From contig CAVPKN010000026.1 in the NCBI GenBank assembly GCA_963705695.1, positions 16,138-80,137 of the forward strand: a stretch of 64,000 bases of DNA, given 5' to 3'. This document shows, piece by piece, positions 32,255-33,625 of this stretch. Every line of letters starts with the position of its first letter. The first letter of the stretch is position 1. The position numbers and the translations under genes were made by a program. The stretch comes from an uncultured Chlamydiales bacterium (lineage in GTDB: Bacteria > Chlamydiota > Chlamydiia > Chlamydiales > JAAKFR01). The notes beneath the pieces were generated by a model. That model saw nothing but the letters and a program-made list of their open reading frames with translations, was not told the DNA's origin and did not search any database.

Positions 32255-33274
32255 TTACCGCTTGATGCGGAGCCACCAGCGCCACTCTGCATTTTTCATT
32301 CTGGGTATTCTTAATTTGACTAGCGTCACATAAATGAGACGCATTTGAAGCATTCTTTCAGATTCCCAATTGTGATGACTCATCGCAAGGCGGATAGAAT
32401 AAAGAGGATTTTTTCGACGCATTTCTGCCAATTTATCATGAACATGTGAATAAATATCCATTGTGGAAAAATCTTGTCTCTCATAGATAAAAATGCCAAA
32501 AAAATCGCGCCAGTCGTGGGGTTTGTTTACAGGAGGAAGTTTGTCTAACAAGTCTAAAAAATTACATGAGCCATGCTCAACTTCATCTTCGGTGAGTTCA
32601 GATAAAAGCAACTCTCTTTCATTTTTTGTCAGATAAACTAAAGCCTCCATCGGGATCCATGATGGTTTATACGGGCATATGATATTTTTCTCTCTTACAG
32701 GCTTGTAATCGAGACCTCGGATCGCATAATCCCCCTCTTCCCATTTCAGATAATCGGCAAAATCTCGATTCAACTCTTGCTTCCATTGTGTAAGACGATC
32801 GGGTACTTGTTCAGGTTGTCCCACAAGCCCATAGGATCTTGTGTACACTTTGGGCAGACCTTTACTATTTTGCGGCTCTTTGATTTTTGTTTCCTTTGGA
32901 GCGCCGGATTTTGTGATCACTTGGGCTTGACGATTAGAATTGCCCTTAGAAGTCTGAGCTGGTTTGTTTTTATTTTTCTCCATTGGAGGAGAAGGGAGCA
33001 TTACTTTTTGTCTCTGCTGTTTATTGCGAGAGCAACAATGAATCGCAATCATCGCGATTGCTACAACGAAGGCTAGAGCAGCAGCTGCATAAGCGGAATA
33101 TTGAAGATAAAGAGCGGGAGTTGTTCCAATAGAATTGAGTATCCCAAACTTAGCTAAAAGGGCAATTGCCGTGAAGGCCACAACACAGGCAATCGGAATA
33201 AGTAGAGTAGGAGAAATACCCTGTCGAACCTCCTGAGCACCGCTGATAGTTCTATCTCTAATGTAGCAACACAT
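32255..33274 (-). CDS. hypothetical membrane protein with an Inc-like bilobed hydrophobic domain
   Basis: 339 aa. The N-terminal ..LLIPIACVVAFTAIALLAKFGILNSIGTTPALYLQYSAYAAAALAFVVAIAMIAIHCC.. is two TM segments joined by a short loop. A Lys/Pro/Gln-rich linker and a ~200-aa domain with no recognised family follow. Confidence 0.5.
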   Translation of the reverse strand: MCCYIRDRTISGAQEVRQGISPTLLIPIACVVAFTAIALLAKFGILNSIGTTPALYLQYSAYAAAALAFVVAIAMIAIHCCSRNKQQRQKVMLPSPPMEKNKNKPAQTSKGNSNRQAQVITKSGAPKETKIKEPQNSKGLPKVYTRSYGLVGQPEQVPDRLTQWKQELNRDFADYLKWEEGDYAIRGLDYKPVREKNIICPYKPSWIPMEALVYLTKNERELLLSELTEDEVEHGSCNFLDLLDKLPPVNKPHDWRDFFGIFIYERQDFSTMDIYSHVHDKLAEMRRKNPLYSIRLAMSHHNWESERMLQMRLIYVTLVKLRIPRMKNAEWRWWLRIKR

Positions 33275-33435
33275 GAACCTATCTCACTATTCGAAAAATG
33301 TGATTTTTAAAGGATTTTTTTGCAGATTTTAGAGCCTTTTCGAAGAACATACTTTGGTAAGTAGGCCGAGAAAAGGCTCTAAAAGATGGGGAAAAAGACT
33401 TAAAAAGCACTTTTTGCCAATAGTGAGATAGGTTC
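33275..33435. mobile_element. MITE-like palindromic element, long form (161 bp)
   Basis: Inverted arms of about 38 bp: gaacctatctcactattcgaaaaatgtgatttttaaag on the left, and gaacctatctcactattggcaaaaagtgctttttaagt as the reverse complement of the right. There is a central second hairpin (tttagagccttttc...gaaaaggctctaaa). The element abuts the ATG at 33272-33274. Confidence 0.8.
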
Positions 33436-33625
33436 ATAGTCCAGAAAAAAAAACCAGAATAGCTGAAGTGAATATTTTAATGAGAGATGAATTTCTGTAC
33501 CGGAGGATTATGTAACCAAAGAGGAGGGCATAGCCTTGCGCTATGTCCGACGAGAGAGGATTGATATGGCAAAGCCGCAGCCGTTCCTGTGTCGCAAAAA
33601 AGTTGCACATGGCGTAAAACTTAGG

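Follow-up and report, generated by a model that had tools for sequence, protein, structure and literature searches.

The stretch of DNA analysed here, 64,000 nucleotides of contig CAVPKN010000026.1 from an uncultured Chlamydiales bacterium (hereafter the window, in whose numbering all unlabelled coordinates are given), carries a short inverted-repeat element that ends exactly on the start codon of a gene for an orphan membrane protein. This element is very probably a MITE (miniature inverted-repeat transposable element), resident on genuine start codons and flanked by a duplication of AT. The best explanation of the whole is that such an insertion is tolerated by way of an open reading frame (ORF) that crosses the element and would be translated as a leader, with its translation coupled to that of the gene behind it; we place the probability of this reading at about 0.62.

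A sequence-only reading of the window had reported that two unrelated genes share a leader ending at their ATG, and this is borne out. The 37-mer TTTAAAAATCACATTTTTCGAATAGTGAGATAGGTTC has exactly two matches in the window, both on the minus strand (33275-33311 and 24852-24888), where the number expected by chance is 0, and an ATG lies directly 3' of each copy (33274-33272 and 24851-24849). Once the ATGT that follows is counted, the identical run of the two leaders extends to 41 nt. At both sites the longest ORF opens with the junction ATG. The first (32255-33274, minus strand) encodes the orphan membrane protein of 339 aa, called "Inc-like" in the sequence-only reading, and the second (23733-24851, minus strand) encodes a protein of 372 aa with a C-terminal chloramphenicol-phosphotransferase-like (CPT) domain (Pfam CPT at residues 174-350, E = 1.9e-38). 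The common leader of these genes is the same element, landed in the same orientation on both start codons.

In front of the orphan gene the element is complete. This copy, copy A (33273-33437, minus strand), is a full MITE with a 161-nt core, GAACC...GGTTC (33275-33435), and a flanking AT on each side. Its two ends are referred to as Y (at 33437) and X (at 33273, adjoining the gene). The inverted repeat has 38-nt arms that are 89% complementary, including 17 nt that match perfectly, and the copy aligns with copies in other genomes. The upstream AT (33436-33437, minus strand) together with the first G of the element gives a new ATG (33437-33435), while the downstream AT (33273-33274, minus strand) forms the first two bases of the gene's own ATG (33274-33272). 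It was correctly noticed from the letters alone that a potential start codon lies at each end of the element; what had been missed is that the inward ATG at the far end opens an ORF spanning it. In front of the CPT-like gene stands copy B (24850-24888, minus strand), a remnant or solo arm in which the gene-proximal ~39 nt of the X arm are kept, including the AT. Copy B has no partner arm, leader ORF or hairpin, and folding of the RNA from 24840-24960 shows nothing out of the ordinary (z = -0.4).

In the window, termini of the form ATGAACCTATC are found seven times, where 0.04-0.5 would be expected, and together they make up four elements (copies A to D). A search for the termini in public genomes and metagenomes returned more than 190 loci elsewhere, and 198 loci (numbered L001 onwards) were examined for enclosed transposases. 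Many single terminus matches in unrelated phyla were left uncounted, as a pattern of 15-17 bases probably finds these by chance in very large databases. Paired ends are separated by ~129 nt in Nostoc and other cyanobacteria, by 134-149 nt in Thiotrichaceae/Beggiatoaceae, and by ~161-173 nt in Chlamydiota and a few metagenome-assembled genomes of Verrucomicrobiae. AT flanks 179 of 187 termini. Among 77 unique paired elements, the flanks read AT/AT in 68 and are concordant but different from AT in four (AA/AA three times, TA/TA once). Because such concordant non-AT pairs exist, the AT is a 2-bp target duplication and not part of the repeat. An alternative parsing of the ends with a TA duplication, as in IS630-like elements, was rejected, since the invariant AT is followed by different bases at the two ends. 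The identity as a MITE follows from the inverted termini, the target duplication, the many copies and the lack of a transposase: a 161-nt core with only a 52-aa ORF, terminal inverted repeats (TIRs) of 17-38 nt, a 2-bp duplication and dispersed copies, with termini that are conserved across phyla.

The same termini with an AT duplication occur in cyanobacteria, in giant sulfur bacteria (relatives of Thiomargarita and Beggiatoa) and in Chlamydiota/Verrucomicrobiae (L001-L116). Their presence in such distant phyla implies that the element, or its transposase, has spread horizontally. A Thiotrichaceae copy (L078, 2873-3031) is flanked by a 9-bp direct repeat, ATGTTTCAC; elsewhere the duplication is 2 bp. 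There are also mini-hairpins of 44-73 nt that are alike in nothing but the ~11-nt termini ATGAACCTATC, their interiors being unrelated (2413-2485 in the window; L012, 3006-3075; L167, 431-475; L185, 7501-7544; L174, 720-782), and it seems that mobilisation requires no more than the short terminus.

An artefact of annotation had to be excluded, because an in-frame TAG TGA in the terminal repeat (33284-33289, minus strand, read from the sequence) forces ORF finders onto the junction ATG. These two codons close the frame of the gene 9-15 nt upstream of its ATG, and therefore no upstream extension of the ORF is possible. If the association were a neutral coincidence produced in this way, the real starts would lie elsewhere, and the 71 of 179 termini that are followed by G, most with trivial ORFs, fit that view. 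However, when the genes abutting the element were scanned against NCBIfam, the alignment began at profile position 1-6 in 10 of 10 cases (the families YvcK, CydA, Pgk, LepA, MutL, RbfA, NrdR, ABC ATPase, SecG and Psd). The comparison of N-termini with an element-free relative, which the sequence-only reading had proposed as a check, gives the same result: a homolog of the CPT-like protein (P0002, 373 aa, 49% identity) starts with MF, encoded by ATGTTTG as in the window (ATGTTTGGG), and the region upstream of its gene is ordinary and free of the element. Coincidence would furthermore leave the biases of orientation, frame and ATGA described below without explanation, and it is judged highly improbable. 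For the orphan 339-aa protein, a database search found no orthologs, the sole full-length match being the protein itself, and a Pfam scan gave no match. Only weak N-terminal similarities were obtained, which align residues ~10-115; as these matches are offset by 2-8 aa, the N-terminal length of the protein is normal. On these alignments, the gene's start codon is native and was not donated by the element.

The preference for start codons is not confined to the window. In a sample of 28 unique full-length related copies from contigs of Chlamydiota and Verrucomicrobiae (members of the Planctomycetes-Verrucomicrobia-Chlamydiae group, PVC), 20 lie directly against the start codon (ATG) of an ORF that is 60 aa or more in length. 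In the same loci, ~18% of the non-disruptive TATG sites are start codons, or ~6% of sites if TATA and TATC are allowed as well, and the excess is significant (p ~ 1e-9). The association of the element with gene starts, suspected from a handful of junctions in the window, thus holds across related copies. The far end of the start-abutting copies is almost always flanked by ATA (by ATT in one), from which the empty site can be read as T-AT-G, and the TATG-type insertions among the PVC copies are at start codons in 20 of 20 cases. Near-misses, 2-4 nt upstream of a genuine ATG, are found in L150, L198 (at a response regulator gene), L133 and L154. With the X and Y arms told apart by sequence alignment, 19 copies have the gene on the X end and two have it on the Y end (p = 2e-4), namely L102 and L084, the latter with a degenerate far terminus. 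A simpler marker of orientation, that the A-rich arm faces the gene, was rejected, as either strand of such a palindrome would satisfy it. A close relative of the window copy (L197, 2503-2700; peptide 90% identical) lies 17 nt upstream of a gene for an extracytoplasmic function (ECF) sigma factor, has an AA flank, and has a duplicated ATAGGTTC beside its end.

A bias of this kind could also arise by active targeting, in which a transposase would recognise translation-start regions, that is, T-AT-G just past a ribosome-binding site, and the ORF would make the insertion survivable or be a passenger. The unbroken series of TATG-type insertions at start codons and the near-misses just upstream of them are in keeping with this, as is the preference of the cyanobacterial relatives for T-AT-G/A. 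Yet the relatives in Nostoc and Beggiatoaceae share the TATG preference without being at gene starts; in Nostoc the ATG flank is found on either end (6 vs 6), and no long ORF follows it. Moreover, no transposase was identified in the 198 loci, and a 4-bp motif cannot specify start codons. Active targeting is accordingly regarded as an unlikely source of the pattern.

What sets the PVC copies apart is the leader ORF. In copy A it occupies 33279-33437 (minus strand) and encodes 52 aa, MNLSHYWQKVLFKSFSPSFRAFSRPTYQSMFFEKALKSAKKSFKNHIFRIVR, with its TAG stop at 33281-33279. As the element begins with G after the duplicated AT, the new ATG that opens this ORF stands at the position of the old start codon. 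The leader ORF extends to the gene-proximal end in 24 of 27 PVC copies, compared with one of 27 in the reverse direction. Ahead of the terminal 19 nt, 25 of 27 copies have no stop in the leader frame (mean 0.22 stops), while each of the other five frames is stop-free in 0-2 of 27 copies and contains 2.4-3.0 stops on average. The ORF is ~50-56 codons long and is kept at element lengths of 150, 160-163, 173 and 345 nt, with peptides that are 28-63% identical to that of the window. Among the relatives in Nostoc and Beggiatoaceae, most elements are without it, and it is present in 8 of 39.

The place at which the leader ORF ends depends on the length of the element. When the length leaves a remainder of 2 on division by three, the ORF ends at the TAG in GATAGGTTC, 4 nt before the ATG of the gene; when it is a multiple of three, the ORF ends at a TGA that overlaps the start codon as ATGA; and when the remainder is 1, it ends 12-18 nt upstream of the junction. 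An A at position +4 of the gene, which gives ATGA, follows 8 of 8 copies whose length is a multiple of three and 3 of 9 copies with a remainder of 2 (Fisher p = 0.009). A leader ORF that stops beside the ATG of the gene points to coupling rather than to the supply of a promoter.

In a profile search, 39 leader-ORF peptides were found annotated in public data as hypothetical proteins, mostly of 52-56 aa and up to 91 aa. A cluster look-up brought up an unrelated 286-aa protein (P0079), which was disregarded. Several of the 39 peptides are 86-90% identical to the peptide of the window and are encoded on large contigs that share their sources with the window's contig; besides that of the window, at least four leader-ORF peptides come from contigs of those sources. 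Such preservation, with annotation as a hypothetical protein in several assemblies, would also be expected if the 52-56-aa product were a functional small protein spread by the element. However, the only conserved residues are MNLS(H), which is encoded by the terminal repeat, F15 and K41, and peptides from other copies differ from that of the window to the extent given above. In addition, in-frame insertions of 61 codons and peptides of 73-91 aa are tolerated, and no match to a family was found, so that a function of the peptide itself is a poor candidate for what maintains the ORF. The internal insertions are seen in L005 (2769-3113), a 345-nt element with a 116-aa ORF, and in P0065 and P0077, with peptides of 73 and 91 aa; in all three insertion-bearing copies the leader ORF still runs uninterrupted to its usual stop.

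The hairpin provides a possible reason for an open frame. The gene-sense RNA of copy A is predicted to fold into a hairpin of -68 kcal/mol (z = -8.7) in which both ATGs are base-paired. Across the family, the gene-sense strand folds ~14 kcal/mol less stably than the antisense strand. At a suitable distance upstream of the recreated ATG, a Shine-Dalgarno-like sequence is found in 10 of 21 copies, compared with 17% at random positions; examples are AGGAAACAACAA and GAGGACTCT, each followed by the ATG.

By its junctions, the element inserted into the AT of a T-ATG start site, and at the downstream junction the gene retains the ATG native to it. The duplicated AT and the G of the element give a second ATG where the old start had stood, in about half of the cases behind a native Shine-Dalgarno-like sequence. 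In the proposed sequence of events, ribosomes would use the ribosome-binding site of the gene itself to start there on the leader ORF and melt the hairpin that would otherwise bury the start codon of the gene, terminate beside the gene's ATG and then reinitiate, in a form of translational coupling. Insertion on a start codon in this orientation would be nearly neutral, while copies elsewhere or in the opposite orientation would present an untranslated hairpin and be purged. Copy A shows this arrangement intact, ahead of the gene for the orphan membrane protein; copy B has lost all but the last 39 nt and would, having lost the hairpin as well, no longer need coupling. Judged from the frames and junctions, translational coupling through the leader ORF is probably what makes the element tolerated.

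The element could instead act as a donor of a promoter or ribosome-binding site, with an outward promoter and/or the Shine-Dalgarno-like GAGAUAGG in the gene-proximal arm and with the leader ORF incidental. Remnants of the last 17-39 nt that still precede genuine starts (copy B; secG in L119, L137 and L193; L122; L168) are compatible with this, and so are the weak pairing of GAGAUAGG with the anti-Shine-Dalgarno sequence (-3.5 kcal/mol) and the arm itself, which is A/U-rich and unstructured once its partner is gone. However, a promoter and terminator scan in and around copy A found nothing, with no sigma-70-type promoter on either strand of 33150-33700. The two arms have the same terminal 17 nt, yet genes are almost only on one end, and donation leaves the frame-specific absence of stops and the association with ATGA unexplained. 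A donor role is therefore considered doubtful. The sequence-only reading had suggested that the element may supply neighbouring genes with 5' leader, promoter or start-codon sequence: the first applies to both genes, while no promoter was found and the start codons are native by the ten profiles and the CPT homolog.

Several observations weigh against tolerance through a coupled leader ORF. Upstream of the leader ATG in the window copy, the Shine-Dalgarno-like sequence is only weak (-2.2 kcal/mol), and copy B, the secG loci and similar remnants function without any leader ORF. Two Rhabdochlamydiaceae loci, L102 (at mutL) and L084, have the gene at the opposite end of the element and lack a through-ORF. 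The PVC copies are related by descent, so that the counts given above are not fully independent, and no empty orthologous site was recovered. Targeting, rather than tolerance, could account for the excess at start codons, and translation of the leader ORF followed by reinitiation is a step that we infer from sequence. Finally, no autonomous partner was found, in that a screen of the 198 loci showed no transposase between two termini spaced 400-4000 nt from each other.

The ORFs beside solo termini were considered as autonomous partners and rejected; they are housekeeping genes or, in one case, an unrelated transposase-like ORF, which we take to resemble ISL3. A matching insertion sequence (IS) would be expected to end in GAACCTATC. 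A more far-reaching but rather improbable possibility is that the element is a self-contained "start-codon cassette", whose duplication rebuilds the ATG and whose through-ORF passes ribosomes on to the interrupted gene, with a transposase that actively targets translation starts, or with a host that regulates housekeeping genes such as pgk, lepA, nrdR and secG through the hairpin and leader ORF. If true, this would be the first start-codon-specific niche of a DNA transposon described outside the MIRUs (mycobacterial interspersed repetitive units).

The two other copies in the window are reduced. Copy C (41567-41636) is a 70-nt internally deleted derivative that combines a 24-nt Y terminus with a 46-nt X arm and lacks a through-ORF. 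The A with which copy C begins also serves as the final base of the TAA stop of an RNA methyltransferase ORF (40956-41567); the methyltransferase profile is matched to its last position, so that the C-terminus is intact. Copy D (2413-2485) is a 73-nt mini-variant that shares only the 11-12-nt termini; it is intergenic, differs in its interior and runs into stops after five codons. The ggttcATG junctions pointed out at 2484 and 41635 in the sequence-only reading do exist, but they open ORFs of only two codons and one codon, respectively.

Other repeats lie near these copies. Just upstream of copy B is a separate 163-nt hairpin (25326-25488) with 68-nt arms that are 82% complementary and termini ATACCGAATCCAAGTAAT. 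It overlaps the 5' end of a 154-aa ORF (24948-25412) without a Pfam or NCBIfam match, and it may mark the rearrangement that shortened copy B. Two stretches 3.5 kb apart, 38317-39146 and 41818-42653, are 83-92% identical and cover the ORFs 38309-39052 and 41789-42559, neither of which has a family match; the second adjoins copy C. Elsewhere in the window, twelve tandem repeats of 126 nt (42 codons) occupy 61231-62916 inside a 1658-aa ORF (57967-62943). Two further giant ORFs, 51320-56743 and 25840-29790, are paralogs that are 71-85% similar over long stretches, one being inverted. Four tandem paralogous genes are on the minus strand at 18297-23684, with a spacing of ~1.4 kb (repeat families D12, D16 and D17).

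Tolerance through a coupled leader ORF would explain how, in compact intracellular genomes, a 160-nt hairpin can occupy the start codons of essential genes and not be lethal. It also yields a testable rule, namely that the ATG is restored by the AT duplication, that a single open frame runs across the element, and that its stop lies on or beside the start. For annotation, the 52-56-aa "hypothetical proteins" and the starts downstream of them become recognisable and can be called consistently. The element would in effect be a natural cassette of bicistronic design.

Searches of the literature by sequence and topic found no description of this element, and a 2024 review of prokaryotic MITEs never mentions start codons; the TIR-bearing chlamydial family thus appears to be undescribed. 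In Rfam, there were only sub-threshold matches, to plant miRNA-precursor hairpins (47 bits vs a gathering score of 119). Identity with Nezha / ISNpu3 was rejected: Nezha has a direct repeat of ~10 bp, CATTATCTAC in the reference copy (PMC6042816). All of the Nostoc relatives found here have 2-bp flanks instead, and it is by its published description that Nezha is set apart from them.

Relatives with the same termini are the MITEs of cyanobacteria and Beggiatoaceae (129 nt in Nostoc, 134-149 nt in Thiotrichaceae), which have the identical ATGAACCTATC(C/T)CACTATT, the AT duplication and the preference for T-AT-G/A. Unlike the PVC copies, they are mostly without a through-ORF and are not at gene starts. 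Correia elements of Neisseria are hairpin MITEs of ~100-160 bp with a 2-bp duplication that are often located beside genes, are co-transcribed with them and are able to affect expression. However, they duplicate TA and have promoter boxes at their ends, whereas the duplication here is AT, the base after the AT is discordant and no promoter consensus was found. Rickettsia palindromic elements (RPEs) are likewise palindromic repeats of ~150 bp in obligate intracellular bacteria and are open in the direction of the host gene. RPEs lie inside coding sequences and are translated within the host protein; here, in contrast, the ORF is separate, its stop lies before or on the ATG, and the N-termini of the host proteins are intact.

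The closest parallel in principle is provided by the MIRUs, which are direct or tandem units of 40-100 bp in Actinobacteria and are not known to have terminal inverted repeats, a long hairpin or a 2-bp duplication. They have been described as start-codon insertions with an internal ORF that is coupled to the gene through a -4 overlap, an arrangement thought to minimise the effect on expression (PMC12548453, summarising Supply et al. 1997). Both the position at the start codon and the geometry of the ORF are matched by the element described here, and its subfamily with lengths that are multiples of three has the same ATGA overlap, although the coupling itself is inferred in the present case. 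On the other hand, the window element is a single 161-nt TIR hairpin in PVC bacteria whose AT duplication regenerates the ATG, and the window copy has a 4-nt gap to the gene rather than an overlap. The start-codon principle has thus already been proposed for mycobacterial MIRUs; what differs are the TIRs, the long hairpin, the ATG-rebuilding duplication and the phylum. If coupling holds, the idea behind the MIRUs would also apply to a MITE of the classical, TIR-bearing type from another phylum, suggesting convergence on a "translationally transparent" strategy of insertion.

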